DNA of 54,931 nucleotides from a virus (IMGVR_UViG_3300010218_000003:66124-121054); one strand, 5' to 3'. Positions 2,334-54,931 are shown, counted from the stretch's first letter. The notes: generated from the letters alone by a model not told the origin. A program made the numbers and translations.

Positions 2334-3554
2334 TTACACGCCGTAACTTTCCTTCCAGATACCCCTGTCAAGATCAGCCTCAAGGTAGAACCCGAAGTCT
2401 GAACCATGACGGTTCTTTCTGGAAACAACTTCAATCAGGCCGCTGTCGTTATCACGGTGAACCGCGAAGGCCATGTCAGCATCATACTCGATCTGCTTGG
2501 ACCATGCAACCTGGCTCAACATAGGCGGATTGTCCTGCCCAGAGATGCCATCGTTGTTAGTAGCAGCAGTGATGTCAATCACAGGAATGTTGTTCGTCAT
2601 GGCTAGACGCTTCATTTCCTTGGAAAGCATCATGTTTCGCTGAGTAGGATTAGCTGACTTTGCATTGTCGGTAAAGAGCTGGTGATAGTCACAGATCACA
2701 ATGTCTGGCCTGTGCTGCTCAATCTTGCCCTGTACGACGTTAGGAGTTACATCACCAATTCCCTCGTTAGAGACAATGGTGAATGCTGGGGTGTCGGTTA
2801 GCTTCTTCTTTCCCCACTCGCGGAAGTTATCAATGTTGATCTGACCACGAGCGAAGTCAGTAGCTGAGAATAGACCAGACGCCATCATTGTGTAGAGTCG
2901 GTCACGCATATTCTCAGGACTCATCTCAAGAGAGACGATCATAGGCTTATAGCCCTGGAGCCATGCCTGAATAGCAAGATATGATGTAAACCACGTCTTA
3001 CCACGTCCTGGCCAACCGATAGCCACGATAAAGTGACCACCAGCCATACCCGTAGGATAGGCTGCATCGATTGCTTTAATGTTCGTCTTGATACCGACTG
3101 CACCCGTTACCGCCGCCTTTTCCTTGACGGTTAGAAGGTGCCTCTCGGCCTGCTCATAGTCAGTGATATCAAGGTCACGAACGTTGTTGGTGAATCGACC
3201 CAGATTGCCTAGCTCTTGCATTAGCTTGTCAAGAACCTGAGCAGGCGCGTACTTGTCGAGCGCTCCCATACCCTTCTGCATGATCTCGTCCATGCGAGAG
3301 TACAGGAATTCTGACTTTAGTTCTTCCAGATAGAAGGCAGGTTCGGCGTCAGCCTGCACTGCCTCTAGCTGCTTGAACTTATCAGTCAGAACTGTGATGT
3401 CCGGGATGGACTTGTACTGCATGTAATACTGACGCATTGAGATCCACACGTCCCGGAAAGGACCGAATAGATCATCAACGTTGTCCGCCATTAGTGGAGC
3501 AATCTGCTTTGTAGTGCAGACTGAATTAATTAGCTTCTCCGCTGTTGTTGGCAC
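2334..3554 (-). CDS. dnaB: DnaB-like replicative helicase
   Basis: Walker A GWPGRGKT, SLEM, ICDY, EYDAD and KNRHG motifs of SF4 helicases. Confidence 0.92.
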   Translation of the reverse strand: MPTTAEKLINSVCTTKQIAPLMADNVDDLFGPFRDVWISMRQYYMQYKSIPDITVLTDKFKQLEAVQADAEPAFYLEELKSEFLYSRMDEIMQKGMGALDKYAPAQVLDKLMQELGNLGRFTNNVRDLDITDYEQAERHLLTVKEKAAVTGAVGIKTNIKAIDAAYPTGMAGGHFIVAIGWPGRGKTWFTSYLAIQAWLQGYKPMIVSLEMSPENMRDRLYTMMASGLFSATDFARGQINIDNFREWGKKKLTDTPAFTIVSNEGIGDVTPNVVQGKIEQHRPDIVICDYHQLFTDNAKSANPTQRNMMLSKEMKRLAMTNNIPVIDITAATNNDGISGQDNPPMLSQVAWSKQIEYDADMAFAVHRDNDSGLIEVVSRKNRHGSDFGFYLEADLDRGIWKESYGV

Positions 3555-3873
3555 GTTCCTCCATCCTTCGAACTCGCTCGGCTGTCTCAGCCATGATCTG
3601 CTTGCGCTTCTCTACGTCCTTAATCAAATCCAGACGCATCTTGTTAAGTTCCATATACCTGTTGAAGAAGGTGTCTACACTATGTCCATTTGCATCGCAA
3701 GTGAAGTAGTATTCAAGGACTTCCCTCAGCACCGGGTATTTTAGGTCGTTCATCGCTGTCATAAAACCCCACTGAGCTGAATAGGAGTTTACGGATGATT
3801 CAATCCCGTAGCGCTCCTTATACAGCTTCTTGTAAAGTGAAATGAGAGCGTGTGCTTGCTGTCTCTGATTCAC
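3526..3873 (-). CDS. Hypothetical protein (possible helicase loader)
   Basis: 115-aa ORF overlapping dnaB start; function inferred from position only. Confidence 0.6.
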   Translation of the reverse strand: MNQRQQAHALISLYKKLYKERYGIESSVNSYSAQWGFMTAMNDLKYPVLREVLEYYFTCDANGHSVDTFFNRYMELNKMRLDLIKDVEKRKQIMAETAERVRRMEERANNSGEAN

Positions 3874-4070
3874 CTGTCCTCCAGAGCATCAACAATCTTC
3901 GTCAGTCTTTCGAAGAAGCTTCCTAGAACATCGTCTGAAACTCGCTTAAGACCTTCTTCCACCGTTTCGCCTGGTAGAAGCTCAGTCTCAGCTCCAGCAG
4001 TGATGTCTACGTTCTGGAAGTTTCCGAGATTGTGCTTATACGTGATACCCCAGTTTACCTTTTCACTCAT
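3870..4070 (-). CDS. Hypothetical protein
   Basis: Start MSEKV at ATG 4070 with upstream GAGGA; overlaps both neighbours. Confidence 0.65.
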   Translation of the reverse strand: MSEKVNWGITYKHNLGNFQNVDITAGAETELLPGETVEEGLKRVSDDVLGSFFERLTKIVDALEDR

Positions 4071-4350: not shown

Positions 4351-4872
4351 TTACCAATCTTTTGCCTGCCACACTGGTGTAAATCCACCATCACGGGTCT
4401 TTGTGTATAGAACCACCTCATTGCGCATCATTGCTATCAATTCTGCCTTTGACGGTAGGTTCGTTCTCACTGGCTGACCATCATTTCTTGGCCTGCCGGG
4501 TCCATGATTCAACATCATATCATGAAGATCAAGGATGTCCTGCTCAGTCCACAAGTATAGACCAGCCTTGCCCTGTCCGTCAAGAGAGTAGGTTAGGTAT
4601 GGTCGCTTGATCAATCCATTTCTAATGTAACTGATCATAGACTCTCTTGTCCTGCCGACCATTTCTTCCACCTGCTTAGTGAAGAATGCCTTTTCCATAT
4701 TCTTTCTTGCGACGGATAGCACATAGGCTACTCGCTTCTTCTCTGGATAATTCCATGCAATGAGAATGTCAGCCGCATGATTGACTTGGAGTTTCTTATG
4801 AGCTTGACCATCGAGAAAGAAATACAGGCTAGGGTTCTTTTGTCCCCTTCTGCTGCCTGGCTTATCTCCCAA
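4351..4872 (-). CDS. MerR-like helix-turn-helix DNA-binding protein
   Basis: FFTKQVEEMVGRTRESMISYIRNGLI resembles a MerR wHTH; TTG start at 4872 follows GGAGG. Confidence 0.6.
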   Translation of the reverse strand: MGDKPGSRRGQKNPSLYFFLDGQAHKKLQVNHAADILIAWNYPEKKRVAYVLSVARKNMEKAFFTKQVEEMVGRTRESMISYIRNGLIKRPYLTYSLDGQGKAGLYLWTEQDILDLHDMMLNHGPGRPRNDGQPVRTNLPSKAELIAMMRNEVVLYTKTRDGGFTPVWQAKDW

Positions 4873-7595: not shown

Positions 7596-10500
7596 TCATC
7601 CCTTGTGGTAGAGAGTGATCTTTCCGTATGAAGATCCAGATCCTACACCGTACATTACTGCGTAGTCACCGGTTCCACTTCCATAAACACCGAATCCTTC
7701 AATTCTATTTGCAGCAGTTGCGTCAACAATATTGTTGTACCAGCTTGATGGAATCGTTACTGTTGCTGCCTCTCCTCTTGATAGAAATACAATGTCATCT
7801 CCGTCTGAACCTTCATTGGTCATACCTCCAACAGGGTCACCAGATGGCTTAGTCTGATAGATATGACCTCTAAGGTTAATTCCTACTCCAGTGTTGTTAC
7901 CATGTGCGGTAGACATTCTCTTGAGGTAGATGGTAGCCTTTGTAGGAGTTCTTACTACACCACCAGCATTTAGAGCATCGTAGATCTTTGTTCCGTAGAA
8001 GTAAAGACCTCTGTGATTGTCATTTCCTGTCCAGTCACCCTGGTAAACATCGTCACCGTCGTTTCTCCACATACCACCATATCCAAGACGGTAGGAGTCT
8101 GAGGAGTTAGCAGTAACAGTTACTGGTGAAGCAAGTAGGTATCGTGAAGCAGATACGTACGTAGAGTGGTTTCCGCTTGAGTCATAAGAAACAACTCGGT
8201 AGTAGATCGTCTTATTCACTGGTAGACCTGAGTGGTCGTACTGCTTTGCAGCGCTTGCACCGCCCGTTACGGTAATAATCTTTCCATCTGTGGTCAGAGT
8301 CTTAGTACCGCTTCCTGCAATTGTTACAGTAGGATATCTGTCGCTTCTCCAGATAACCTTGACACCGGCCGTGTCTGATGCTGATGGATTGGTCCAGTTC
8401 AAACGATATGTACCAGTTGTTGTGCTAGAAGTCAAGGCAGTGATCTTGAATCCGGTTGGCGCGCTAGGAGCCGTCGTGTCTCCAGTTGGAGTTGTAGTTG
8501 TTGCATCTGGAGCCGTGCTGAATGAAAGGCCGTCTAGAAGCAAGAATGTTCTTGTCGTGGCAGTACCATCAGTTGCATACCAGAAACAACCACCTGATGT
8601 GTTAATAACAACAACACAAGAAAGGGCTGATGACACATCATTATAACCCACTGTTGGAAGATAAACAGTCTTTGCTGGTCTGAATCCGGAGGGCAAAGTT
8701 GCAAAATACTGGGATGATGTTGCTCCCTTGATAGCAGTTCCCAGCAATCCTCTTAGATATACATTTCCATTGCTAGTCCAGTATGACGGTGTGTAGGCAC
8801 CAGAAACTACTGTGTAACCATTTGTCAAAGTCATGTTCGCCCATGGAGGAGTTCCGTCAACATCGAGGTGTCCGTAAACACGAACATTTCGACTAGTCAT
8901 CATATCTGCGTCATCATCGGCGTAGCTAGACATAACAAATTGTCCATTGGCATTTGTAAGAACCCAACGACCTGGATATACAGCGTCATTCATTCCATAG
9001 AATCTGATTCCATGTTCTTCCGCACCGGCTGGAGAGAAGTTGGTTAGCTGTGTGCTGGCTCGGTTACCATTTGAATCAGTGTAGTTAACCATTCTGACTG
9101 CACCGGTTCCACCTTCGGACTGTAGAATAATTCCTGGGTAGAATGGCGTATCAGGACGACCACCGACTGTTGCTCCCCATACATTATCTGGAAGATCAAG
9201 CTCAGACTTTGAAACGATGATTCCACCATTAGACTTTACGTAGTCAGACTGGAGCATGATTCTGCTTCCTGATGCTGTACGGAAGTCTGTCCTTGTTCCC
9301 ATTTCAAGCTGCACGTCATCGACATATACAATGTCACCAGTTGCACCATTGAACCATGAGAATGAGAATTCAACAGAGTAGCAGGTATCAGGGATAACAA
9401 TTGGTGAGATGAATGAGAAGTTTACCCATGCTGTATTGGTTACTGCCTTTTCAATGAAATATCCTTGAATCATTGCACCGGCCTCGTCCATGAACTTAAC
9501 AACAAGTCGGACGTTTCTGCCCGTGGCAGTACCCATCATTGCATAACCAGTAACTGTTACCTTCTGTCCGATGAGTTCCTGATTAGTAAGAGTTGATACT
9601 GAATACTTACCAAGAAGCTCAGTTGTTGCCGGGCTGGAAATAGTTCCAGTTGCAGTGATCTTTAGTGAATTGGTGTCCTCTCTACCAACAGTTGTCTCTT
9701 GTGTCAGAGCTGTATTTGCCATTCCAGACCATCCAGTGATGCCGTCTTCGAATGTTGCATCGTAGATGTAGTTTGGATTTCTGTCATAAAGACCTACAAA
9801 TACGCTTCCGTAATTTGCATTCTTGTTGATCAGAGGAGGAGCAATTCTCAAATGTGAAGCGTCGTTCCAGTCACCATCCATTACGTGACCGATCATTCCT
9901 GGAAGCTGCTCATCGACCTCTCCAGTGTAGAATCTGATTGCGTGGTCAAAGATTGATCCCTGAATGTTTTCAACAGAGACAGCCTTTTCACCATTTACAT
10001 CGGTGGTTGCAACCTTTGCTGGAGCACCATTTTCATATGCCTCAATTGAGAACTGGTCAAGCTGAGCAATAGATCCAGCAGCAACATCCCATTCCACATA
10101 AGGAACAAGATAACGAACTGCCTGATTAAGTGACGCTGGATCGTATGGGTCATTGTGCTGGCCTTGAGTTCCCAATACGCCAGTCGTTCCAGCTCCACCA
10201 CGACCACGGACATATCCAGTTACAGTAATCCAGTCAGAAGTTGTAGCTGAGCTACCAGTAGCGACCTGCACCTCAGTATTGTTTTGAACAAGCATATACT
10301 GATTCGCAGCATATCCAGAAAGAAGGCTGTAATCAGTAGGCATTGTGTGCTTCTTTGTAGGAGTAGTCGCATCGTCTACATAATCCCAGTCGATGATGTT
10401 GCTGTTGTTGTCGAATCCGAATAGACCCACCTTGATGCGTGGTGGAGTGGTTACAGTTACATCATCAAACCAACCCTGAATTCCTGCCACCGGGCTTCCT

Positions 10501-45542: not shown

Positions 45543-46266
45543 CGGTGTAGATTCAATTATCACTTGCCTTGACAAGGGCTATGTACGCCTTGTAGACTCT
45601 ATGGGCAGTGATCTTTCTATCGTCAATGCAGCTCGTGTATCCTATGCAAAGGAGTCAGATGACTTTTCCGACAAGGACGATAGACTACTAAAGTTCCTTG
45701 TCAGGGAAGGTCATCTTTCCCCGTTTAGGCATGCTGCATTGACATTTGAGGTATACGCTCCACTATTCGTGGCGCGTCAGTGGTGGAAGTATGCTGTGGC
45801 ATCTAGCCACCTGGAAGATCAAACTGGATGGAATGAGTCTTCTCGAAGATACATTACCGAGGAGCCGGAATTCCATGTTCCAGATATGACACAGTGGCGT
45901 ACAAAGCCTGCGAATAGCAAGCAAGGAAGCGGCCCGGCGCTAAAGGCTTATTCAGATACATGGCCTTATCATGACGCAGGAGACTTCTGGACAATGACAC
46001 TACAAACCTTCATTAATGAATCTGAGAAGCTTTATAATCAGGCTCTAGAAGCAGGTATTGCACCAGAACAGGCAAGGCTATTCCTTCCTGCATATGGAAT
46101 GTTCGTCCGGTGGCGTTGGACAACCTCTCTGGCTGCCGTAGCTCATTTCCTTGCAGAAAGACTAGAGCATGATGCGCAGTACGAGATTCAGCAGTATGCT
46201 AAGGCTGTCAATGATCTGACAAGCAATATCTTCCCAAAGACATTGGAGGCACTAAATGCAAAATGA
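45529..46266 (+). CDS. thyX: FAD-dependent thymidylate synthase
   Basis: NAARVSY, GHLSPFRH, FVARQWWKY, NESSRRY, EQAR..LP, AQYEI motifs. Confidence 0.92.
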   Translation: MTKIDGVDSIITCLDKGYVRLVDSMGSDLSIVNAARVSYAKESDDFSDKDDRLLKFLVREGHLSPFRHAALTFEVYAPLFVARQWWKYAVASSHLEDQTGWNESSRRYITEEPEFHVPDMTQWRTKPANSKQGSGPALKAYSDTWPYHDAGDFWTMTLQTFINESEKLYNQALEAGIAPEQARLFLPAYGMFVRWRWTTSLAAVAHFLAERLEHDAQYEIQQYAKAVNDLTSNIFPKTLEALNAK

Positions 46267-46474
46267 GCCCGGCGCAGAAGAAACAGATGTATTCGATAGA
46301 GATAGCTATGAAGTAGTAAATACCATTATGCTTCTAAGACTATATGATGTCATGATGTGTGTAGCAAGAGGGGTAAATCCAGAAGAAGCAGTAAAGCTGC
46401 TCGCACTGCATAAGCAAGGCAAAATTGCTGGGCCTCCGCCAAGCTGGGATATGAGCGATGACTCACAAGACTGA
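46256..46474 (+). CDS. Hypothetical protein
   Basis: 72-aa ORF overlapping thyX stop. Confidence 0.65.
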   Translation: MQNEPGAEETDVFDRDSYEVVNTIMLLRLYDVMMCVARGVNPEEAVKLLALHKQGKIAGPPPSWDMSDDSQD

Positions 46475-46685
46475 TAGTGTTGTAGGTTATCAAATGTACC
46501 GAGCCTTCTGCATTAGCTATGAGGCTCTAGACCTAGTAGAACTCGGTCTGCCAGGCTGTCTGCATTGCGGAAAAGAACCAACGACTATTATGGTCACCCC
46601 GGATTGTTTTAATTGTGAATGCGACGCACACGCCCGTTTCGAGCCATGCATGCATCTAGTCGGATTTGAATTGTGGCGAGACTAG
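46458..46685 (+). CDS. Cys-rich hypothetical protein
   Basis: C..C and C..CEC..H motifs. Confidence 0.6.
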   Translation: MTHKTDSVVGYQMYRAFCISYEALDLVELGLPGCLHCGKEPTTIMVTPDCFNCECDAHARFEPCMHLVGFELWRD

Positions 46686-46936
46686 CCGTCCCGGCAGCAA
46701 GATCATCTATTTTCAAATTCGAAATGTCAGTAATTTTTAGTCATGTATGATACATGCTTCGCATACCTTTGTAACAATCCGATTAGTGCGCCCATATCCC
46801 TTGACATTCTCTCCGGGGAAGGTTCCACAAGGCAGGGCAGGCCATTTGAAAACAGTGTTCAAAAGCCGTGTGCGCCCGTCTGCGGGCATGAAAGTGCCCC
46901 TAGGTACTCAGACCTAGGGGCTACTCTCAAAGGCTC

Positions 46937-47398
46937 TCAGATGCTCTCAGGACGCTTCCAGTTGGCACGACCCCGGTTAGCCTGCGGGCCCTGCTTAACC
47001 TTGCCACTGTCCTTGATCAACTTACCGTCCCACATCGAACGATTGTCGTAGAGAGGCACGAGCACATCAGTAAGGGCATCCTTACCCATGTCCTCATTGC
47101 ACTGCCTGCAAAGGGGAAGCATGTTCGCTGCACAGTAGGTGCCACCCGTAGCGTCAGCCTCACAGTGACCAAGGTTCAGCGTGTCCATGTTCCGGGGCGC
47201 ACCCCCCACGTATGCGTTCTCACCGCACCCCACACACACAGCGTAGGTCTCACCGTCCGAGTGACCCGTAAGGCTTGCCAGGTACAGCACCGTAGCGAGG
47301 AGCTGCCTACGGTACGCGCTGCCCGCCGTACGGTCGTTGTCCCTGCACTGGTGGTTGTTGGCGTTGTGTGCGGTGACCGGGGCGGTGGTGGTGATCAT
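46937..47398 (-). CDS. HNH-like endonuclease
   Basis: CVGC...GH..A...GG.....N..PLCRQCN..MG; GGAG RBS. Confidence 0.7.
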   Translation of the reverse strand: MITTTAPVTAHNANNHQCRDNDRTAGSAYRRQLLATVLYLASLTGHSDGETYAVCVGCGENAYVGGAPRNMDTLNLGHCEADATGGTYCAANMLPLCRQCNEDMGKDALTDVLVPLYDNRSMWDGKLIKDSGKVKQGPQANRGRANWKRPESI

Positions 47399-47511
47399 TG
47401 TCTGTCTCCCTTGTGTTCGTCGTTGTACCTACATTCTGCCCTAGGTACCGGGCCTGAAACCACCCAATCCCACGTTTCTTAGGTAAAGACTTGGTAACGA
47501 CCGGGGCGGCC

Positions 47512-47675
47512 GGACATACCAACCAAATCGGACATTGGGTACATACCCACACATAGGTGTACATATAGGGCATATGGGTGCATACCATACCATACTGGTA
47601 CAGATGGGGCGTATAGGGCAGGGGGCACATAGGGGACATTCCTCTTTACGGGGACATTAAGTATTTCCGGGACAT
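47512..47675. repeat. Periodic GGACAT/RCAT repeats (iteron-like)
   Basis: GGACAT at 47512, 47530 and 47634, 47652, 47670 (18-bp spacing); CAT-ended units every 9-10 bp from 47535 to 47583. Confidence 0.7.
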
Positions 47676-47726
47676 ATCCCCCGCGCGTGTACGACTGGCC
47701 ACAAAATTTCCCGGAGGATCTAGGTT

Positions 47727-47927
47727 GTGCATGGTGCATGGCCTGTGTATACTGGTACTACACCAAGACGGAAGGGACTGATCAACTTGACCACTCTCGA
47801 TCTTCTGGAGCGGGCAGTATCTGAGGGGTGGGTATCCGTATCTACCCTGTCCACTACGGTACAGGATGACATGCGTACCGTGGACATGGACGAGGACGCC
47901 TACCCGCACGTATCCGAACTGGCGTAA
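47727..47927 (+). CDS. Hypothetical protein (start uncertain)
   Basis: 66-aa ORF followed by a terminator hairpin. Confidence 0.45.
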   Translation: MHGAWPVYTGTTPRRKGLINLTTLDLLERAVSEGWVSVSTLSTTVQDDMRTVDMDEDAYPHVSELA

Positions 47928-47931
47928 CTAA

Positions 47932-47961
47932 ATAGGGGGCTATCTACGGGTAGCCCCCTAT
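47932..47961 (+). terminator. Hairpin, terminator-like
   Basis: ATAGGGGGCTA-8nt-TAGCCCCCTAT perfect 11-bp stem; weak T tract. Confidence 0.55.
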
Positions 47962-47981
47962 ATGGGCAGAAAGGGAAAGCA

Positions 47982-48194
47982 ATGTTTCGGAAAAAGGCAA
48001 AAAACGTTCTGACGCATTCGCTTACCCTCAAGCTCGAAAAGAACGGCCTCTTTTCGGAAACGGGCGTAATTTCTTCGGGAAATCTCGAAATTCTTCTTCG
48101 GAAGTACAATGAAGGCGGATTTCGCCCGGTGGAAGCAAAACATTCAACTTATTGCCACTGTGGCACTGGAAAGGGCGAAACCTATGAATGCTGA
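47982..48194 (+). CDS. Hypothetical protein
   Basis: 70 aa; AAAGGGA RBS. Confidence 0.55.
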   Translation: MFRKKAKNVLTHSLTLKLEKNGLFSETGVISSGNLEILLRKYNEGGFRPVEAKHSTYCHCGTGKGETYEC

Positions 48195-48372
48195 CCGTAT
48201 GCAAACCCTTCTTGAGGGAATGCGTGATCTGGCAGCAAAGGCACAACTGATGCCCATCACAAACGAAACCATGGCCGCTGGGATGGCTCTGGCGGAGATG
48301 TTCGAGGAATTCGACCTTCTGATTCTGGAAAACCGAACGATTCCTACCGAATGGGAACGATTCCGTGGCTGA
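48184..48372 (+). CDS. Hypothetical protein
   Basis: MNADRM... overlapping neighbours. Confidence 0.6.
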   Translation: MNADRMQTLLEGMRDLAAKAQLMPITNETMAAGMALAEMFEEFDLLILENRTIPTEWERFRG

Positions 48373-48589
48373 GCTGTCCTTGAACCAATTCATTCTCGAT
48401 ACCATTGCGGAATGGATTCGAGACAACAAGGGTCAGCGTTATGGGCAATTCGTATTCAATCGAGTTGCTGAGCACCGGCCCGAAATCGGAAATGCCCTCA
48501 CGGGCACAATCCATGATCCTTTCTACGCAAACGACAACAACGATCCTCGAATTCACCGTTTTTGGGCCAAAGTGGACGAACTCTGGTGA
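48365..48589 (+). CDS. Hypothetical protein
   Basis: 74 aa; R.GQ..FN and DPFY motifs common in small phage proteins. Confidence 0.7.
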   Translation: MAELSLNQFILDTIAEWIRDNKGQRYGQFVFNRVAEHRPEIGNALTGTIHDPFYANDNNDPRIHRFWAKVDELW

Positions 48590-48788
48590 ATCTGAATAAA
48601 TTCGCTTAGATTTTCACCCCTATGTTTCTTAGGTATATGCACGAAAAACCTTCGAATCGTAGGGGTGAATTTCTGACTAAAAAGTTAGCCGCCCCGGCTA
48701 GATGACTAAAAATCTGTGTAGACATCTAGAGACTAAAAAATCGGCGTAGGTGTTGCGCTACTGGCAATCCGACTGCTAGACTTCATAC

Positions 48789-48989
48789 ATGAAGCGAGGA
48801 CAGATCTTCCAGCCGAAGAACTTCGATGACGGATGCAGGACTCAGATCGTAGACGTGATCGGTGATCACAACGTGGTGATCATCCACACCGACGAAGGCT
48901 GCACCGTGACCCTTCTGCATGACATGGCAATCGAGAAGTACATGAAGCCCGGTGACAAGATCGAGTGCGTCTGTGGGGAGATGTTCTGA
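48789..48989 (+). CDS. Hypothetical protein, leaderless
   Basis: ATG 6 nt after TAGACT. Confidence 0.7.
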   Translation: MKRGQIFQPKNFDDGCRTQIVDVIGDHNVVIIHTDEGCTVTLLHDMAIEKYMKPGDKIECVCGEMF

Positions 48990-49147
48990 TGTTCTGCATG
49001 CACCAGTGGACTAAGTGGATTCTGGTCACGGCTCACATGGACAGCCCTTTGATGGGTTGGATCAAGGGTAAGCCTGTCGAGTGGACACAGCCCATGCAGG
49101 CTCGCAAGTGCGTGAAGTGCAACAAGATCCAGACGAGGAGCGTCTAA
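48989..49147 (+). CDS. Small Cys/His protein
   Basis: MFCMHQW...RKCVKC; TGATG overlap. Confidence 0.7.
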   Translation: MFCMHQWTKWILVTAHMDSPLMGWIKGKPVEWTQPMQARKCVKCNKIQTRSV

Positions 49148-49377
49148 TGTTCATGATCTCTGAGGGTGACGTGTTCGTGGATGTCAACCCTGACATTCTT
49201 CACAAGGAAACTTTTCTGTACGTCGAGGTCGTGGACGACTGGATCAAGGCTGGGCATCACAACCCTCGTGAGTGCCTGCGTGCTGTCTACCCTCGCACTA
49301 CCCTTGAGCGTGCATTCAAGAAGGTCGAACGTGTACCTAACGAGTGTGCGTGTGGCGGTAAGCTTTTCTGGGAGTGA
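49147..49377 (+). CDS. Hypothetical protein
   Basis: MFMISEG...CACGG; TAATG overlap. Confidence 0.7.
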   Translation: MFMISEGDVFVDVNPDILHKETFLYVEVVDDWIKAGHHNPRECLRAVYPRTTLERAFKKVERVPNECACGGKLFWE

Positions 49378-49456
49378 TCTCAGGCCCTTCGGGGCCGCCC
49401 CGGCTAAATCTCAAAAGTCTTGCCACCGGCCCTAATTACGTGCTAGACTCATCCCT

Positions 49457-49753
49457 ATGAAGACGCCGAAGGTTCGTAAGCCCAAGCCGTTCTACGCCAA
49501 CATCTACCTCGAAGATCTTGCGTGTGGTGGTCCGCAGGAAGGTGGTTGGTACTACAACTACCGTGAGCCGTGTGTGTCCGTCAAGGTTCGGTCCCGTCGT
49601 GAGGCTGAGACTGTTCTCAAGCGACTGACCAAGAAGCGTTACAGCAACAACGGGCGTAAGGCCATTTGGTCCGTCAACAGCACCGGTCAGTACCTTGACC
49701 GTATCGAGCGTAAGCCTGCCGAGCGTGAGAGTGACTGGTCTCCCTGGGAGTAA
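49457..49753 (+). CDS. Hypothetical protein, leaderless
   Basis: Single-gene cassette; GGPQEGGWYY. Confidence 0.75.
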   Translation: MKTPKVRKPKPFYANIYLEDLACGGPQEGGWYYNYREPCVSVKVRSRREAETVLKRLTKKRYSNNGRKAIWSVNSTGQYLDRIERKPAERESDWSPWE

Positions 49754-49899
49754 TTGGCAGCGCCCTTCGGGGCGCTAGCCGCCCCGGCCAAAAAATCTTG
49801 AAAATCAGCCCTCGAAACAGTTGGACACGGCCCGCTAGACTCTGCTAAGCTTAGTACATCGAAGGGGGCAAGAAGTCCCCTAAGACGAAGGGAAACCTC

Positions 49900-50484
49900 A
49901 TGGAGCGCATCGAGATCGTTCAGCAGGTCGGCAACTACTTCCCCGACACCAAGATCGCTGACGCTCTCCGCTTCGCGGGTGACATCGACCGTGGCTTCCG
50001 CCGTCAGTTCGAGGACGAGCGTTACAAGCTGGAGGACGCCAAGTACACGTACGGTCAGGAGCGCTACGACGCGGGCGTGCAGGACGGAAAGAACTCCGTT
50101 CGTGCGACGTTCGACCCGAAGGTCGTAGAGGCCACTTCCTGGGCTATCGTGAACTTCACCGCGCGTGACTTCACCCGCAAGATCACCTGCATCAAGGTGC
50201 TGCGCGACAAGTTCCGTCCGCTGGGTCTGATCGAGGCGAAGGCCATCGTGGACATGATCACTCCGGTCGGCACGACCGACCAGCTCGACTGGGCCAAGAT
50301 CGAGGAGATCGAGAAGGACTCCCCGGCTGAGGCTCTGGCCACGGATGAGGCACTGGCCGCACTGCGCGAGAAGATCGCCGGTAAGGCCGTTCCCACGCCG
50401 AAGGACGTGTTCGAGCGTGAGTCCTCCGAAGAGTCCAGCTACAGCGCGGGTCCGTGCCCGTGTGGTTGTGGCATGGGCGACTGA
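49900..50484 (+). CDS. Protein with ribosomal L7/L12 C-terminal-like motif
   Basis: KITCIKVLRDKFRPLGLIEAKAIVD resembles the bL12 KI.VIK.VR...GLKEAK.LVE motif. Confidence 0.65.
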   Translation: MERIEIVQQVGNYFPDTKIADALRFAGDIDRGFRRQFEDERYKLEDAKYTYGQERYDAGVQDGKNSVRATFDPKVVEATSWAIVNFTARDFTRKITCIKVLRDKFRPLGLIEAKAIVDMITPVGTTDQLDWAKIEEIEKDSPAEALATDEALAALREKIAGKAVPTPKDVFERESSEESSYSAGPCPCGCGMGD

Positions 50485-50596
50485 TCAAAGCCTAGCGGCC
50501 CCTTCGGGGGCCGTTTTGGCCGCCCCGGCTCTTTTGAGAATGTCTTGCAATCTGGCCCGGCGTCATGTAGACTCGTCTTAACGAAGGGGAGATACC

Positions 50597-50875
50597 ATGG
50601 CAATGCCTCTCAGCTACAGGATTCGTGAGTACCTGCAAAGCAACTTCGGCAAGCTTCGTACGGGTGATCGAGTAGTAGTCGTGAACTCATGGGCTCAGCT
50701 CTACTTGAACGAGGGCCTTGAGATTGACGGCAAGATCGCGTACACTGGAACCGTGCAGAAGGTTGTGTACAACTCGGTAACGGTCCTTGTGGATCATGGG
50801 TTCTACCGCAACGCTGCATTGGTGACCAGTCCGCACACGTTCAACGAACTGCGTGACAACGTTCACCGCATCTGA
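50597..50875 (+). CDS. Hypothetical protein (SH3-like?)
   Basis: GDRVVV...GTVQKV..NSVTVLV pattern; GGGGAG RBS. Confidence 0.7.
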   Translation: MAMPLSYRIREYLQSNFGKLRTGDRVVVVNSWAQLYLNEGLEIDGKIAYTGTVQKVVYNSVTVLVDHGFYRNAALVTSPHTFNELRDNVHRI

Positions 50876-50909
50876 TAGACTCTAGTCACACCGAATGAAA
50901 GGCAACACA

Positions 50910-51176
50910 ATGGCCGTTCTCATGGGCGAGGTTTCCGTCAAGCGCGCTGGCGTCGTGATCACGATGGCTACCGTCTTCGGAGTCGAGTTCGAGTACCGTG
51001 TCAACGAGCGTGCGGGCAAGGTGTACGTCGAGGCCGCTGGCTCTCCCGAGAAGCTGTCCGCCCTCTACCGTTCCGCTCCCTTCCGCGTGACCAAGGCTCT
51101 GCCTGGCTACGAGGTCAAGTCCAAGTCCTACGACTTCGGCAAGAGCATGGGACTCGGCAAGAAGCCTGTTCTGTAA
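50910..51176 (+). CDS. Hypothetical protein
   Basis: ATG 50910 after GAAAGG. Confidence 0.75.
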   Translation: MAVLMGEVSVKRAGVVITMATVFGVEFEYRVNERAGKVYVEAAGSPEKLSALYRSAPFRVTKALPGYEVKSKSYDFGKSMGLGKKPVL

Positions 51177-51289
51177 GTCATCTGGCCCCTTCGGGGGCCA
51201 TTTGGCCGCCCCGGCTGATTTGCTAAAGGGCTTGTATTCTGCCCTATGAGTGTGTTAGACTCGTCTTACACCGAGCGAGAGGAACGCAA

Positions 51290-51628
51290 ATGTTCTCCAC
51301 GATGCACCAGATTGTCGTCGCTTCCCGTGAGTCCAACTCCACCGCGCGTCACTGGTTCGACAGTTCCTCTATGCGATTCTTCAACACGAGTGTACAGCCC
51401 AACATCTTCCCCATCGGTCAGCGCGGCGTGATCTTCATCACCTCCGACTACCGTTCGGACCCGGAAGACATCGCGTACAGCCTCCGCTACGCTTCCCGCA
51501 ACGAAGAGGGAGCGTTCACCATCTGCACCATTGACGGATTCGGTGACTATGAGTCTTTGGAGGAAGCCGAGGACGCTGCCGACTCCTACCAGCGGTTCTA
51601 CCGTGAGGTCATGAACATTCGGGACTAA
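51290..51628 (+). CDS. Conserved-type phage hypothetical protein
   Basis: HWFD...MRFFNT..; GAGGA RBS. Confidence 0.75.
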   Translation: MFSTMHQIVVASRESNSTARHWFDSSSMRFFNTSVQPNIFPIGQRGVIFITSDYRSDPEDIAYSLRYASRNEEGAFTICTIDGFGDYESLEEAEDAADSYQRFYREVMNIRD

Positions 51629-51738
51629 AGGCAAGCGCCCTCCGGGGCGCAAGCCGCCCCGGCGAAAAGATCTTGAAGATCTATGTTGCGCTGCCCTACC
51701 CCTTGTGTATATACTAGAGACACAACGAAGGGAACAAA

Positions 51739-51906
51739 GTGAGAAGCGATCTTCGTAGGCTGCGTCAAGAGCGTTACCAGAACCAGCAGCAGCGGGTGAA
51801 GGTGATCAAGAAGCTCGGAAAGATCAAGCGTGAGCGTGCGCTGGCCTTCCGTGACTTCGATGGTCCTGACTTCATGGACTACGACCCCAACGAGTGGTTT
51901 GACTAA
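51739..51906 (+). CDS. Small basic/acidic protein (55 aa)
   Basis: Manual ORF GTG RSDLRRLRQ...EWFD; AAGGGA RBS. Confidence 0.65.
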   Translation: MRSDLRRLRQERYQNQQQRVKVIKKLGKIKRERALAFRDFDGPDFMDYDPNEWFD

Positions 51907-52006
51907 GATCATAGGCTGTGTCGGCCTAATCTTCCTCGTCCCTTGTTTTATCGGCCTAGTTCTGCTAGGCTTGTGGACAGTCAAGACAGTTCTTTTCTCT
52001 CTCTAG
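51899..52006 (+). CDS. Very small membrane protein (35 aa)
   Basis: TTG TKIIGCVGLIFLVPCFIGLVLLGLW...; fills the gap exactly. Confidence 0.5.
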   Translation: MTKIIGCVGLIFLVPCFIGLVLLGLWTVKTVLFSL

Positions 52007-52014
52007 GAGTGATC

Positions 52015-52158
52015 ATGTACAACGTCAAGGGTGTCATCAACGCCGACCGTGTTTCTGGCCCCGTTGCGCTCGTCCTCACCCTTCTTAACCTGGGCCTTGG
52101 TGCCTTCGGGATCATGATCATCGGTGCTCTCCTGCACATGGGATGGAACTGGGTCTGA
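52015..52158 (+). CDS. Small membrane protein (47 aa)
   Basis: MYNVKG...; AGGAG RBS; one long hydrophobic stretch. Confidence 0.7.
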   Translation: MYNVKGVINADRVSGPVALVLTLLNLGLGAFGIMIIGALLHMGWNWV

Positions 52159-52278
52159 TCATGGCGGGCCGCCTTCGGGCGGCCTAGCCGCCCCGGTCAA
52201 AAGATCTTGATGGATTGAGTTGACTCTCCATCACCTCGTCCGCTAGAATATAACTACCAACAGGGCGCAACAATTGGA

Positions 52279-52638
52279 GTGAAGATGCCCAAGGTCAACG
52301 TGGAACAGCTCTGGCACGACGCGATCTTCGGAGACGCTTCCAACTCTCGTTCCGGTGGGGCTGGCTCCCGATGGATGGACGACAAGGAAGCGTGCATGCT
52401 TGCCAAGTTCGATGAGCTGCCGCGTGCGTTCATCGACAGCATCGAGAAGGACGGCATCAAGACGCCGATCGTCTACGACCCGCGTAACAACCGCGTGACC
52501 AACGGTCATCACCGCCTGCTCGTCGCCTACCTGCTCGGCATCACCGAGATCGAATACATCGACAGCCGCGACACCTACAACGGTTGGAGTCTCGAAAGGG
52601 CTGCAAAGGCCAAGGGTCTTCCGATGGGTCGCAGGTAG
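52279..52638 (+). CDS. ParB/Sulfiredoxin-like nuclease-domain protein
   Basis: SIEKDGIKTPIV......NGHHRL motif; no HTH. Confidence 0.8.
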   Translation: MKMPKVNVEQLWHDAIFGDASNSRSGGAGSRWMDDKEACMLAKFDELPRAFIDSIEKDGIKTPIVYDPRNNRVTNGHHRLLVAYLLGITEIEYIDSRDTYNGWSLERAAKAKGLPMGRR

Positions 52639-52744
52639 AAAGGCTGTGGGGCTTCGGCCCCACTAGCCGCCCCGGTCAGGGGTTGTAATCTCATCTCTGT
52701 TCGTGTAGACTTTAGCTATCAGCCAACGAGGCCAGGAGGCCAAA

Positions 52745-52933
52745 ATGGGTACTATCGTCACTGTCTACTACGCCGACCGTGACCAGCCCATCAAGTTCCG
52801 TGTGAACCTTCCCCTCGAAAAGGTCAAGGACAAGCTGTACTCCAAGATGGCCATTCTGGAAGAGGCGAACGGCACTCTCTTCATCATCAACTTCGAGAAG
52901 GTGGATCAGTTGGAGATCCGCAAGGCATACTGA
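52745..52933 (+). CDS. Hypothetical protein
   Basis: 62 aa; AGGAGG RBS. Confidence 0.75.
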   Translation: MGTIVTVYYADRDQPIKFRVNLPLEKVKDKLYSKMAILEEANGTLFIINFEKVDQLEIRKAY

Positions 52934-53063
52934 GCAGCGGGCCGCCTTCGGGCGGCCTAGCCGCCCCGGCGAAAAGATCTTCGTGGACTGTGTTGCATCC
53001 GGTCCCCATTCCTTGCTATAGTAGAGACATCAAAGAGGGAAACACCCTCTAAGAGAGGAAAAC

Positions 53064-53579
53064 ATGGACGCCTCCAACATCGTTCGTCTCTTCAACGACG
53101 CTGAGCTGGACATGAACCTCACCGACGCCTTCGAGCTGGCCGACCGGATCGTGAACGACTTCCAGCCCGAGATGAACCGACAGGCGAAGGTCGAATACGA
53201 CTTGGGCCGTGCCCGTGGGCGTGACGAGGGTGCGCAGGAGGTGCGTAACCAGGGTGTGACATTGGACCGTGGCGAGCTGATCAAGCTGCGCGGTATGGAG
53301 GACTTCGTCACCAACATGATCACGGAGGCCGTGCCCGAGATCATCGAGCGTGTCGGTCGCAACTTCAAGATCATGTGCATCAAGACGCTCCGCGAGAAGT
53401 TCCCGTTCCTGAGCATCAAGCAGGCGAAGGACTTCATCGACACCGGCCTCAACAAGATCATCGAGGACGAGAAGCGCATGCTCCGTGAGGCCACGCAGCG
53501 AGCCTACTCCTACAGCAGCTACGACTACGACGACAGCTACGACTACGGCTGTGGCCCCAACTGTTCCATCTGCGGCTGA
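53064..53579 (+). CDS. Second protein with L7/L12 C-terminal-like motif
   Basis: KIMCIKTLREKFPFLSIKQAKDFID; GAGGA RBS; paralogous to 49900..50484. Confidence 0.6.
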   Translation: MDASNIVRLFNDAELDMNLTDAFELADRIVNDFQPEMNRQAKVEYDLGRARGRDEGAQEVRNQGVTLDRGELIKLRGMEDFVTNMITEAVPEIIERVGRNFKIMCIKTLREKFPFLSIKQAKDFIDTGLNKIIEDEKRMLREATQRAYSYSSYDYDDSYDYGCGPNCSICG

Positions 53580-53711
53580 AAGCTGCGCCCTTCGGGGCGC
53601 TAGCCGCCCCGGTCAAAAGATCATGGACAGAAGGTGTTGTACATCGTCGCATCCATCTGTTAGACTAGAGACATCGAAAGGGAGGGAAAACCTCCCGGAG
53701 AGGTGGTTACC

Positions 53712-53810
53712 ATGGCCGTTACCCTTGCGAAGAGCACGGACGAGCAGGACGACACCTACGGTGCGGACGCTCACCTGGACGACTTCGAGATTCTGGTTGA
53801 CTGCGAGTAG
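53712..53810 (+). CDS. Very small acidic protein (32 aa)
   Basis: MAVTLAKST...DCE; GAGGT RBS. Confidence 0.55.
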   Translation: MAVTLAKSTDEQDDTYGADAHLDDFEILVDCE

Positions 53811-53865
53811 ACAAGCCAAGCTCGATACGCTAGACTAAGAACACACCACGACGAAAGGCTCAAAA

Positions 53866-54030
53866 ATGAAGGCTCTCGCCATCGCCAAGGTCATCGCCGA
53901 GACCCCCATGACCGCCACCGCGCGTGTCCGCCTCGTCCGCAACATCACTGCTGAGATGACCGACAACATGGCCAACGAGTTCGAGACCATCGCGCTCGGC
54001 CTGGATGACTTCGAGGTCGCTCCCAAGTAA
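53866..54030 (+). CDS. Small hypothetical protein (54 aa)
   Basis: MKALAIAK...APK; GAAAGG RBS. Confidence 0.7.
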   Translation: MKALAIAKVIAETPMTATARVRLVRNITAEMTDNMANEFETIALGLDDFEVAPK

Positions 54031-54133
54031 TCAACTAGCCAATGGCCCCTCCGGGGGCCATTCGGCCGGGGCGGTCAAAAGATCTTGATCCAAGTATGTT
54101 GATTCTCCCTCTTACGTCTGCTAGGATGAATCC

Positions 54134-54856
54134 ATGGGACTCAAGCGAACCAATGACCGGAAGACGACCGTCCGAGCCAACACTGCGGGTAAGCAGTCAC
54201 TGATCAAAAACGCATTCTCCCTTCCCAGCGGTAAGGCATTCTCTTGCCCTGGTGCGACCGGTGTGTGTGAGACCATCTGCTATGCGGGAAGGATCGAAAA
54301 GCAGTATCCAGCATTCCTCGCAGTGGCAATGCACAATTGGGAATTGCTCAAGGATGCTTCCCTCGCTGAAATGATCACTCTTCTGAGTGACATGATCAAT
54401 GAATTCGTGACTGAGTGCGAAAAGCACAATGTCCCTAAGCTTTTCCGCTGGCACGCCGATGGTGACATTTTCTCGGCTGCTTATGCGGAAGCAATCGAGG
54501 CTGTTTGCCTTGACTTCCCTGACGTGCAATTCTGGATCTACACTCGGTCATTCGAGTATGTAGGATTCATCACGTCAATCCCTAACCTGTCTGTCTACCT
54601 TAGTGTGGACAAGGAAAACCTTAACGCCGGGCTTCTTTGCGCGGCTGACAATCCCGGTGTCAAAATGGCATATCTGGGAGAAACCTTCAACGAAGGTAAA
54701 GAGATCTTCGAAACTCTGACTGGCGTTCCCGGTGGAAAGTGTCCCGAGAATGCTAAGCAGATTCCGCTGATTACTAAGAAGGGTGGCGCGTGCGTAACGT
54801 GTGGCCTTTGCATCTTCGGTAAGGCGGACATTCGATTCTCTCGCACTAAGAAATAG
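54134..54856 (+). CDS. GP88-like (radical-SAM-related) Fe-S protein
   Basis: CPGATGVCETICYAG triad, FRWHADGDI, WIYTRS, C-terminal C..C..C; leaderless. Confidence 0.7.
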   Translation: MGLKRTNDRKTTVRANTAGKQSLIKNAFSLPSGKAFSCPGATGVCETICYAGRIEKQYPAFLAVAMHNWELLKDASLAEMITLLSDMINEFVTECEKHNVPKLFRWHADGDIFSAAYAEAIEAVCLDFPDVQFWIYTRSFEYVGFITSIPNLSVYLSVDKENLNAGLLCAADNPGVKMAYLGETFNEGKEIFETLTGVPGGKCPENAKQIPLITKKGGACVTCGLCIFGKADIRFSRTKK

Positions 54857-54931
54857 CACGGGCCTTCGGGCCGGGGCGGCGAGACAAATCGGACATAATT
54901 TCATGTTGACCCTAGCCGCCTGCCCTGTTAG

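Follow-up and report, generated by a model that had tools for sequence, protein, structure and literature searches.

At the end of the 54,931-nucleotide stretch analysed here (the window), small genes follow one another in an array whose boundaries share one short word. What is this array, and what could an invariant word be doing at its boundaries?

The terminal repeat and its boundary modules

The array belongs to the long direct terminal repeat (DTR), ~12.2 kb, of a large Streptomyces phage of cluster BE (Karimacvirus-like; family Stanwilliamsviridae), and makes up most of this repeat. It corresponds to positions 4-10.3 kb of the DTRs of BE phages, 89 records of which were matched in the collection; an earlier note on this DNA had already suspected an early-gene array in a terminal region, and the block indeed maps inside the DTR of relatives. 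The repeat differs from the remaining genome in GC content (52-58% vs 45-49% elsewhere) and in the GC3 of its genes (0.71 vs 0.48), and almost none of its products has a known function. Judging from their sequence context, the DTR genes appear to be early genes. In the relative Wipeout, each DTR carries 13 copies of the word and the 108 kb between the DTRs none; neither a repressor nor an integrase is annotated in positions 1-114 kb of this genome, a span that takes in one complete terminal repeat. Another relative, Coruscant, is predicted to be virulent (PMC7650747).

The word, GCCGCCCCGG, occurs in 12 exact copies in the whole window, where 0.04 are expected and none of 100 shuffles reached 12. 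Ten of these lie on the plus strand within 48680-54931 (starts 48688, 49394, 49778, 50519, 51205, 51653, 52187, 52666, 52960 and 53603), as had been counted in the earlier note; two exact copies are reversed, with a flipped core (54871 and 47501), and a further reversed copy at 54066 has one mismatch. The ten plus-strand copies and the reversed ones at 54066 and 54871 mark 12 boundaries within 48680-54931, which agrees with the 'about 12 units' first noticed. The array continues past 54931 with three exact copies and one variant, at contig positions 1181, 1698, 2939 and 3358 of the circularised assembly (55-b overlap). In the 121-kb genome all 17 copies of CCGCCCCGG lie inside the DTR, and its 15 boundaries carry the word and a promoter in every case and a GC hairpin in 14. 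We found no published description of the word or of the boundary module.

Each unit boundary is a composite module made up, in this order, of a GC/TTCG hairpin without a U-tract, the word in the form (G)CCG-CCC-CGG(Y) 0-5 nt past the hairpin, an A/T-rich stretch which is often AAAAGATCTT, and a TTGNNN-N17/18-TAGACT promoter. Of the 12 boundaries within 48680-54931, 11 have a GC hairpin with a 5-9 bp stem whose end lies -3 to +5 nt from the word; its loop is TTCG, or TCCG in two cases. At the remaining one (48688) there is no more than a weak inverted repeat some distance away. Every word is followed by a promoter of the type TTGNNN-N17/18-TA(G/T)A(C/A/G)T, with the TAGACT-type -10 element 30-49 nt past the word, and the promoters in the DTR fit the host type. 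Hairpin and promoter are thus as originally described; a second element, AAAAGATCTTG, exists as well, and calling it frequent was generous because it is exact at only three boundaries (51665, 52199 and 54078), with close variants at three more. Each unit holds 1-3 ORFs of 35-240 aa.

The boundary hairpins are not canonical intrinsic terminators, as the GC hairpin is present and the U-tract absent. The 9 nt after the hairpin hold 5-6 T residues in non-DTR terminators, 0-1 at most DTR hairpins and 3-4 at four of them. A consensus terminator scan missed all the boundary hairpins; its one plus-strand match (48074-48089) lies upstream of the array. For purified actinobacterial RNA polymerase, termination needs a U-tract (PMC3993855).

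Near the inner edge of the repeat, at about 46765 as mapped from Wipeout, lies its sole minus-strand gene (46937..47398), which encodes an HNH endonuclease with a weak Pfam HNH_5 match; an HNH gene is annotated at the same place in all relatives. Upstream of it and co-oriented with it, an exact minus-strand copy of the word (47501..47510) adjoins an island of GGACAT/GTACAT repeats (47512-47700), an arrangement which recurs in CeilingFan, Yaboi, Jay2Jay and Coruscant. The first plus-strand promoter, TTGTGC-N17-TATACT (47725..47753), drives 3-4 small ORFs up to 48589 and, as read from the sequence, has neither hairpin nor word directly attached.

The modules proper are all on the plus strand. 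The first word (48688..48697), which lacks the GC tetraloop hairpin, precedes a -35 element at 48753-48758, a -10 element at 48777-48782 and genes at 48789-48989, about 49000-49147 and 49147-49377. Module 2 (49383..49449: hairpin 49383-49396, word 49394-49403, -35 49420-49425, -10 49444-49449) serves a gene at 49457-49753, and module 3 (49759..49841: hairpin 49759-49776, word 49778-49787, -10 49836-49841) a gene at 49900-50484 whose 194-aa product has a weak L7/L12-CTD-like match. In module 4 (50496..50573) a TTTTG spacer separates the hairpin (50496-50513) from the word (50519-50528), followed by the -35 (50545-50550) and -10 (50568-50573) elements and by genes at 50597-50875 and 50895-51176. 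An internal promoter in this unit, GTGACA-N17-TAGACT (50853..50881), has neither hairpin nor word, so the word is not a general promoter accessory. Module 5 (51183..51261: hairpin 51183-51200, word 51205-51214, -35 51232-51237, -10 51256-51261) precedes a DUF7447 gene (51290-51628). The next two modules both contain AAAAGATCTTG: module 6 (51635..51715: hairpin 51635-51650, word 51653-51662, -35 51686-51691, -10 51710-51715) with genes at 51739-51906 and about 52016-52158, and module 7 (52167..52249: hairpin 52167-52184, word 52187-52196, -35 52220-52225, -10 52244-52249) with a gene (52279-52638) encoding a ParB/Srx-like N-terminal domain only.

Module 8 (52646..52711: hairpin 52646-52663, word 52666-52675, -35 52683-52688, -10 52706-52711) precedes a gene at 52745-52933, and module 9 (52940..53022: hairpin 52940-52957, word 52960-52969, -35 52993-52998, -10 53017-53022) a gene at 53064-53579 which is a paralogue of 49900-50484. 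Module 10 (53585..53666: hairpin 53585-53600, word 53603-53612, -10 53661-53666) is followed by small ORFs up to 54030, with an internal, word-less promoter at 53808-53836. In module 11 (54041..54127) the hairpin (54041-54062) precedes a flipped-core word, GCCG-GGG-CGGT (54066-54075), then AAAAGATCTTG and the -35 (54099-54104) and -10 (54122-54127) elements of a GP88-family gene (54134-54856); this flipped core is kept in all Karimacvirus genomes examined. In module 12 (54860..54931) the hairpin overlaps a flipped exact copy (54871-54880), after which come AAATCGGACAT (54886-54896) and a TTGACC promoter which runs beyond the window end and drives an Lsr2-like gene at contig positions 92-604.

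Variation of the word and of the cassettes among relatives

Across 107 copies in nine genomes, the word is constant and its flanks are variable. The distance from hairpin to word is -4 to +5 nt in 97 of the 107 copies, and the distance from word to -10 element falls into three classes (30, 39-41 and 47-49 nt); the word is coupled more tightly to the hairpin than to the promoter. Hairpins without a promoter have no word, and neither do promoters without a hairpin.

Each related genus has its own dyad word, at the same place in the module and in the DTR only. Tomas carries GACCGG-C-CCGGTC and Coruscant GGCGCC-C-GGCGCC, both perfect 13-bp palindromes, and five Samistivirus genomes carry TGTCCG-NNN-CGGACA, which shares with CCG-CCC-CGG the 3-bp spacer between arms and the many copies per genome. 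Between genera the outer positions change symmetrically, and the central base or triplet is strongly biased towards one strand (Karimacvirus 13:3, Tomas 13:1, Coruscant 13:2). In Samistivirus the centre is variable and left-arm variants are uncompensated, as one would expect of a protein dyad rather than an RNA stem. Genus-specific dyads at a constant place, restricted to the DTR, point to a co-evolving dimeric phage DNA-binding protein.

The cassettes vary too. Their content and order differ among relatives, with crossovers inside the word, so that the invariance which would have spoken against a recombination anchor is not seen and the word stands as a real anchor at which cassettes are gained and lost. 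In at least four independent indels of whole cassettes the crossover lies in the word (unit 18, a 900-bp deletion in Wofford, and one extra unit each in Wofford and Yaboi); the whole module 8 unit (52646 on) is missing from Enygma, Yaboi and Wofford, and different genera place units differently. The microhomology at the junctions is 11-24 nt, and some indels end elsewhere. The word is the longest sequence identical at all boundaries and hence a crossover point for short-homology recombination, which would delete, insert or exchange whole cassettes at this position. In appearance the junctions resemble products of short-homology recombination among the repeated regulatory modules, and in this they match the T4 PeSLs discussed below. 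The label 'integron-like' had to be dropped: no integrase is found in annotated relatives, and the boundaries, a simple hairpin and a 10-mer, hold no attC-like structure.

Candidate readers of the word

Three traits of the word speak for a phage-encoded protein that binds it: its dyad symmetry, its differing form in each genus and its confinement to the DTR. The word is thus probably a docking site for such a protein and plausibly an operator for co-ordinated control. We infer that a protein bound there would affect termination or initiation, insulating or shutting off early units. In our preferred reading, to which we give about an even chance, the word is the binding site of a dimeric phage protein which punctuates and co-ordinately controls at least 15 early units, and also a cassette crossover point. 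The region would be the transcribed body of the DTR, where host RNA polymerase transcribes each of the 15 or more early units independently; on the word, the dimer would block read-through at the weak hairpins, shut the adjoining early promoters, or both.

Several observations fit this reading less well. With its centre at about -48 to -66 relative to the start site, the word does not occupy a classical repressor position, and a symmetric dimer gives no account of the central strand bias. Promoters are lacking at the last copy, which stands ~750 bp short of where the repeat ends, and at the boundary copy adjoining the GGACAT island. Among the proteins examined, about 25 from the DTR together with those annotated as DNA-binding, none had a sequence-specific DNA-binding domain. 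The protein of 4351..4872, proposed earlier as an HTH binder, does not deserve that label, since it has no Pfam match and matches only a PHROG of no known function.

A narrower version, possible but unlikely in our view, is that the phage protein on its genus-specific dyad turns the U-tract-less hairpins into factor-dependent terminators or insulators. Until this protein accumulates, host RNA polymerase would traverse the whole repeat; later, each boundary would stop the polymerase and the early units would be uncoupled or silenced. The site would evolve with its reader and double as the crossover point for cassette exchange.

The word might instead act in RNA, as a second small hairpin or a single-stranded tag read by a phage factor in termination, antitermination, or mRNA processing which leaves a protective 3′ hairpin. 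The tighter bond to the hairpin than to the promoter would suit this idea, as would the place of the word, which is that of the U-tract, and the bias of the C-rich central triplet with transcription in three genera. Either base found at position 11, C or T, could pair with G1 in RNA, and stems of 4-6 bp closed by a 3-nt loop could arise from the arms, as happens when one copy is folded. However, flipped-core copies are kept at two boundaries with unchanged flanks, CCC and GGG centres are about equally frequent in Samistivirus, where left-arm changes go uncompensated, the outer pairs in Karimacvirus are often unpaired, and copies stand at probably untranscribed places (47501 and near the repeat end). 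We consider action in RNA quite improbable.

Equally doubtful is recombination as the primary role, with the word a target of a nuclease, nickase or recombinase (e.g. the HNH enzyme of the repeat) or a homology patch without a part in transcription. The independent cassette indels with crossovers in the word and the shifting places of units among genera are what it would lead one to expect; the HNH gene is conserved in every DTR, each time with a copy of the word ahead of it, and the genome encodes RecA-like, RuvC-like and Cas4-like proteins. Yet general short-homology recombination between repeats would itself yield junctions of 11-24 nt, some indels end outside the word, annotated relatives have no integrase, and selection for evolvability alone fails on the invariance within genomes and the concerted change between genera.

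Slightly harder still to credit is a DTR-specific role in DNA handling, as polar sites for an FtsK/TraB-like motor (cf. KOPS and the Streptomyces plasmid TRS), for a ParB/KorB-like system, or in repeat pairing, packaging or replication. The words are strictly in the DTR and mostly in one orientation, and the phage encodes an FtsK/SpoIIIE-like protein (PHROG match) with a conserved C-terminal tail resembling a winged helix; this tail, however, is near-identical across genera with different words, and the Pfam AAA matches are weak. Every DTR encodes at least one protein with a ParB-like domain, but these have no HTH domain. CGGACA, the half-site of Samistivirus, is found again in the AAATCGGACAT elements and in the GGACAT island at the repeat edge, and CCCGGA is common to the Samistivirus arm and the pSVH1 repeat GACCCGGA. 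TraB recognises 8-bp repeats (PMC4170104), which also speaks for such a motor. The strict placement at the hairpin/promoter junction is left unexplained, and the related BK-cluster phage Wakanda has no such word. Finally, a host Streptomyces protein, recruited or titrated by the phage, would suit a word which is GC-rich like host DNA and lies on DNA probably entering first, before any phage protein exists, but is very improbable given that the word differs between phages of different genera even where these were isolated on the same hosts (S. griseus ATCC 10137, S. lividans JI 1326).

Known systems and biological meaning

Terminal-repeat early regions are known from SPO1 (the host-takeover module) and T5 (the pre-early first-step-transfer DNA), likewise repeats of ~10-13 kb with small early genes, each with a strong host-type promoter and a terminator. 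They have no homology to the BE-phage DTR, and to our knowledge no invariant boundary word has been described in them.

By analogy, the closest known system is not the integron but the promoter-early stem-loop (PeSL) terminator/promoter cassettes of T4-like phages (Arbiol 2010, PMC2839356; Comeau 2014, PMC4122927). Both combine a repeated intergenic stem-loop with a host sigma-70-type early promoter, cluster among small genes of no known function, give each cassette its own promoter and terminator, and contain the indel junctions of close relatives in the repeated element. As phage lineage and host are unrelated and the consensus differs, the present modules are an analogue, not a homologue. 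They fill the terminal repeat only, and between hairpin and promoter stands a word, absent from PeSLs, which is invariant, has dyad symmetry and differs from genus to genus; crossovers are in this word, not in the AT-rich or -10 part. With integrons the array shares short promoter-adjacent cassettes and gain or loss at a repeated boundary element; it differs by having no integrase, no attC-type imperfect palindrome with R/L boxes, a promoter in every cassette, and junctions of plain sequence identity.

The stoperators of cluster A mycobacteriophages and Streptomyces phage R4 (PMC9283540, PMC6550527, PMC10276819) are likewise short sites in many copies, placed in short intergenic gaps mostly in the direction of transcription; their sequence co-varies with phage lineage and they are proposed to stop RNA polymerase. 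In contrast to the present dyad, confined to the DTR of a virulent phage with no repressor or integrase annotated (Wipeout 1-114 kb), they are asymmetric, 13-14 bp long, genome-wide, and bound by the monomeric immunity repressor of temperate phages. Cluster O mycobacteriophages carry 17-bp dyad repeats, TGTTCGG-NNN-CCGAACA (Cresawn 2015, PMC4351075), in more than 30 copies per genome, with no known function and predicted dimer binding. Their inverted arms are exactly 3 bp apart, the Samistivirus word is also close in sequence, and these phages too encode ParB-like domain proteins. Their sites, however, are genome-wide, mostly off promoters and reported not to be involved in indels, whereas the present word lies in the DTR only, at terminator/promoter and indel junctions; BLAST between cluster O and BE phages found no more than an endolysin domain and a single small protein (DUF7455) in common.

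The phages of cluster BE form a large and well-sampled group, and their terminal repeats are annotated almost wholly as hypothetical genes. The word offers a precise handle on the timing and insulation of the first genes in a virulent actinophage that relies on host RNA polymerase alone, on the shuffling of host-takeover gene sets as ready-made expression cassettes, and on the long-running dispute whether U-tract-less actinobacterial hairpins need a bound factor for termination. If the narrower, factor-dependent version were true, intrinsic termination in an actinobacterial system would here be assisted by a protein. For finding and dissecting the putative binding protein, the sites of the different lineages form a natural specificity series.

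Organisation of the boundaries between putative early units

Twelve boundaries between putative early units were delimited within positions 48680-54931 by reading the sequence together with hairpin and promoter scans, and the earlier note had described this array accurately: at eleven of them the elements follow the canonical order of hairpin, word and promoter. Typically, the boundary opens with a GC hairpin whose stem measures 5-9 bp and whose loop is TTCG or TCCG; the word, a short GC-rich motif, lies -3 to +5 nt after the hairpin. Next comes, often, the element (c/t)(c/g)AAAAGATCTT, then a promoter of the form TTGNNN-N17/18-TA(G/T)A(C/A/G)T and a purine-rich leader which precedes 1-3 ORFs of 35-240 amino acids.

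The word GCCGCCCCGG occurs in 12 exact copies in the window (0.04 expected). Ten lie on the plus strand, from 48688 to 53603, and two are reversed, at 54871 and 47501; a further reversed copy, at 54066, carries one mismatch. Among 107 exact copies from nine genomes, 97 are positioned -4 to +5 nt from the hairpin, and the distance between the word and the -10 element falls into discrete classes (30, 39-41 and 47-49 nt).

Location and composition of the terminal repeat

The array block matches 61-89 records of Streptomyces phages (cluster BE, family Stanwilliamsviridae), in reverse orientation and at two places per record, with matched positions at ~4.0-10.7 kb. The related phage Wipeout contains 26 copies of the word: both terminal repeats have 13, and the 108 kb that separate them have none. 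Its repeat offset of 120,731 gives a direct terminal repeat of 12,204 bp. Since the start of our contig repeats its last 55 bases (window 54877-54931 = contig 1-55), the contig is a circularised assembly with a single collapsed copy of this repeat. The end of the window is therefore an artefact of the assembly and does not mark the genome end, which is why the array goes on past it, at contig 1181, 1698 and 2939, with a variant, ACCGCCCCGG, at contig 3358. Mapped from the Wipeout ends, the repeat spans window ~46,765 to contig ~4,107, and in the window orientation its genes point inward, away from the physical end. All 17 genome copies of CCGCCCCGG, the most repeated non-tRNA word of the genome, are inside it.

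The repeat also differs in composition: its G+C content is 52-58% against 45-49% elsewhere, 5-10 points higher (window 46000-54931 compared with the rest), and the GC3 of its genes is 0.71 against 0.48, nearer to the usage of the host (72% GC). Such a high GC3 would fit translation of the repeat genes before the phage's own tRNAs appear. A search for RNA data sets of this phage listed none, and no sequencing run contained more than 0.17 of the words sampled. The encoded products comprise Lsr2-like, ParB/Srx-like N-domain, GP88-family, DUF932 and DUF7447 proteins, an HNH endonuclease and many unknowns. The GP88-family protein (PF17338; window 54134-54856) is 45-49% identical to gp88-type proteins of cluster A mycobacteriophages, for example D29, which are encoded near the right genome end; the family is also present in BK-cluster Streptomyces phages. 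Two paralogous proteins (49900-50484 and 53064-53579) have Cys-rich C-terminal tails and a sub-threshold likeness to the ribosomal L7/L12 C-terminal domain.

Hairpins inside and outside the repeat are not equivalent. Outside, tetraloop hairpins are canonical terminators, since 5-6 T follow on the coding strand within the next 9 nt. Inside, the 9-nt tails mostly hold 0-1 T and in four cases 3-4, all under the non-repeat range, and the word occupies the place of the U-tract. A consensus terminator scan recovered no boundary hairpin. Purified mycobacterial RNA polymerase does not terminate at U-tract-less hairpins, with additional factors left possible (PMC3993855). The host-type promoters outside the repeat lack the word, as do two promoters inside it which have no hairpin (50853-50881 and 53808-53836) and a conserved hairpin at contig 781 with no promoter after it. 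The word belongs only to the terminator/promoter junctions of the repeat.

Other repeated elements were noticed towards the repeat edges. A periodic GGACAT/GTACAT island lies at window 47512-47700, just inside the inner edge; AAATCGGACAT, at 47525 and 54886, is conserved across genera, and AAA(A/T)CGGACAT is also found in several copies in the BK-cluster phage Wakanda. The core of the island element, CGGACA, is the half-site of the Samistivirus word. This element could serve in packaging, as an origin or as the site of a second regulator. At window 46685-46694, outside the repeat and about 70 bp from its inferred inner edge, a variant word, GCCGTCCCGG, is followed by AAGATCAT, and Yaboi has an exact flipped word copy at the equivalent spot. 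Lastly, the final ~750 bp of the repeat are non-coding. Four copies of TATAAGACAT, an element confined to the repeat, are spaced ~50-70 bp apart there, and two short arrays are tandemly repeated with periods of 27 and 31 (features at contig 3540-3730 and 3747-3972).

Lineage-specific dyads and unit turnover

Among the relatives the word is genus-specific but stays in the same place, with ~11-15 copies per repeat: GACCGG-C-CCGGTC in Tomas, GGCCG-CCC-CGGCC in Anedea, TGTCCG-NNN-CGGACA in Samistivirus and, in Coruscant, GGCGCC-C-GGCGCC, after which a second dyad, AGATGYA-N5-TACATCT, and then the -35 come at a constant spacing. Whole-record scans confined the Tomas and Coruscant words to the two repeats. 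No equivalent 13-copy dyad was found at the GP88-bearing end of Wakanda, which is of the same virus family. Between genera, the outer positions differ symmetrically (G..C to A..T; AG..CT to GT..AC). The centre is free across five Samistivirus genomes (GCC 24, CCC 20, GGG 17, GGC 8); there the arm next to the promoter hardly varies, and the one next to the hairpin is variable and uncompensated. Furthermore, Karimacvirus keeps flipped-core copies at two boundaries with unaltered flanks. Taken together, these dyad features would fit a dimeric DNA-binding protein which co-evolves with its site.

Within Karimacvirus the order of the units is mostly syntenic and whole units are present or absent, as judged by ORF clustering over 12 repeats; in the same clustering, families 11, 14 (DUF7447) and 17 (ParB-like) occupy different places in other genera. 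Clean indels were called from chained pairwise alignments. The unit of a 62-amino-acid gene (52676-52960) is missing from Enygma, Yaboi and Wofford; Wofford has a ~900-bp deletion and an additional 242-bp unit, and Yaboi an additional 380-bp unit. Each clean indel has a single junction: the sequence follows the left neighbour as far as the word and the right one from there, with an overlap of 11-24 nt. By our own rough estimate, the chance of four crossovers on a ~13-nt target is ~1e-4 if they could fall anywhere in a ~120-nt spacer. Other indels terminate at the hairpin or within units, and in Yaboi one ~60-nt module is present at two boundaries. The genome encodes RecA-like, RuvC-like and Cas4-like functions; no integrase was found among the genome functions examined.

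Candidate readers and interpretation of the word

Among ~25 repeat-encoded and candidate proteins, Pfam and PHROGs searches detected no sequence-specific HTH or RHH domain; the only matches were Lsr2-like, ParB/Srx-like, GP88, DUF932, DUF7447, HNH, SSB and FtsK-like. The protein that the earlier note put forward as an HTH binder (4351-4872, minus strand) obtained no family assignment beyond a PHROG of unknown function, and the protein annotated ‘DNA binding protein’ is an SSB. A discordance screen of 214 shared ORFs set the identity to Anedea, whose word is the same, against that to Tomas, whose word differs; its top outliers were a vWA protein and unknowns, and it yielded no usable candidate. 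A BLAST comparison with Corndog, a mycobacteriophage of cluster O that carries a similar dyad, covered the right half of the Corndog genome and retrieved just an endolysin domain and a 63-amino-acid DUF7455 protein (contig 9565-9756, minus strand; 41% identity to the Corndog gp116 region).

A weaker explanation is that the words are polar TRS/KOPS-like sites. The phage does encode an FtsK/SpoIIIE-like protein of 603 amino acids (contig 47766-49577, minus strand) whose C-terminal tail of ~70 residues looks like a winged helix and is almost identical across four genera; its N-terminal 150 residues are highly divergent across the same genera, and a sequence search gave no match among solved structures. 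The central C(CC) is strand-biased in three genera, and word copies also occur next to the GGACAT island and close to the end of the repeat; neither is accounted for by a protein site at the early units. The dyad features agree poorly with an RNA stem or with a host factor, since different words are found in phages that were isolated on the same hosts. For the same reason, Chi-like end protection against a host nuclease was rejected. Coincidence with restriction sites (BglI-like GCCN5GGC; NarI in Coruscant) is inconsistent across genera.

In the papers searched, these words were not found described in any phage context, and the BE genome papers are silent on them. By analogy, the boundary system appears to work like the promoter-early stem-loop cassettes (PeSLs) of T4-like phages, for which indels at the repeated boundary element are likewise described (PMC2839356, PMC4122927), with the addition of a putative reader site. 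This added site is reminiscent of the stoperators, repressor sites of cluster A mycobacteriophages and R4 (PMC9283540, PMC6550527), and of the 17-bp dyads of cluster O (PMC4351075). The system belongs to none of these families. We favour the word as a putative protein site which would punctuate the early units. Its predicted protein would most likely act either at the weak hairpins, by preventing read-through, or on the adjoining promoters, by switching them off; recombination at the word would be a consequence of the word being repeated.
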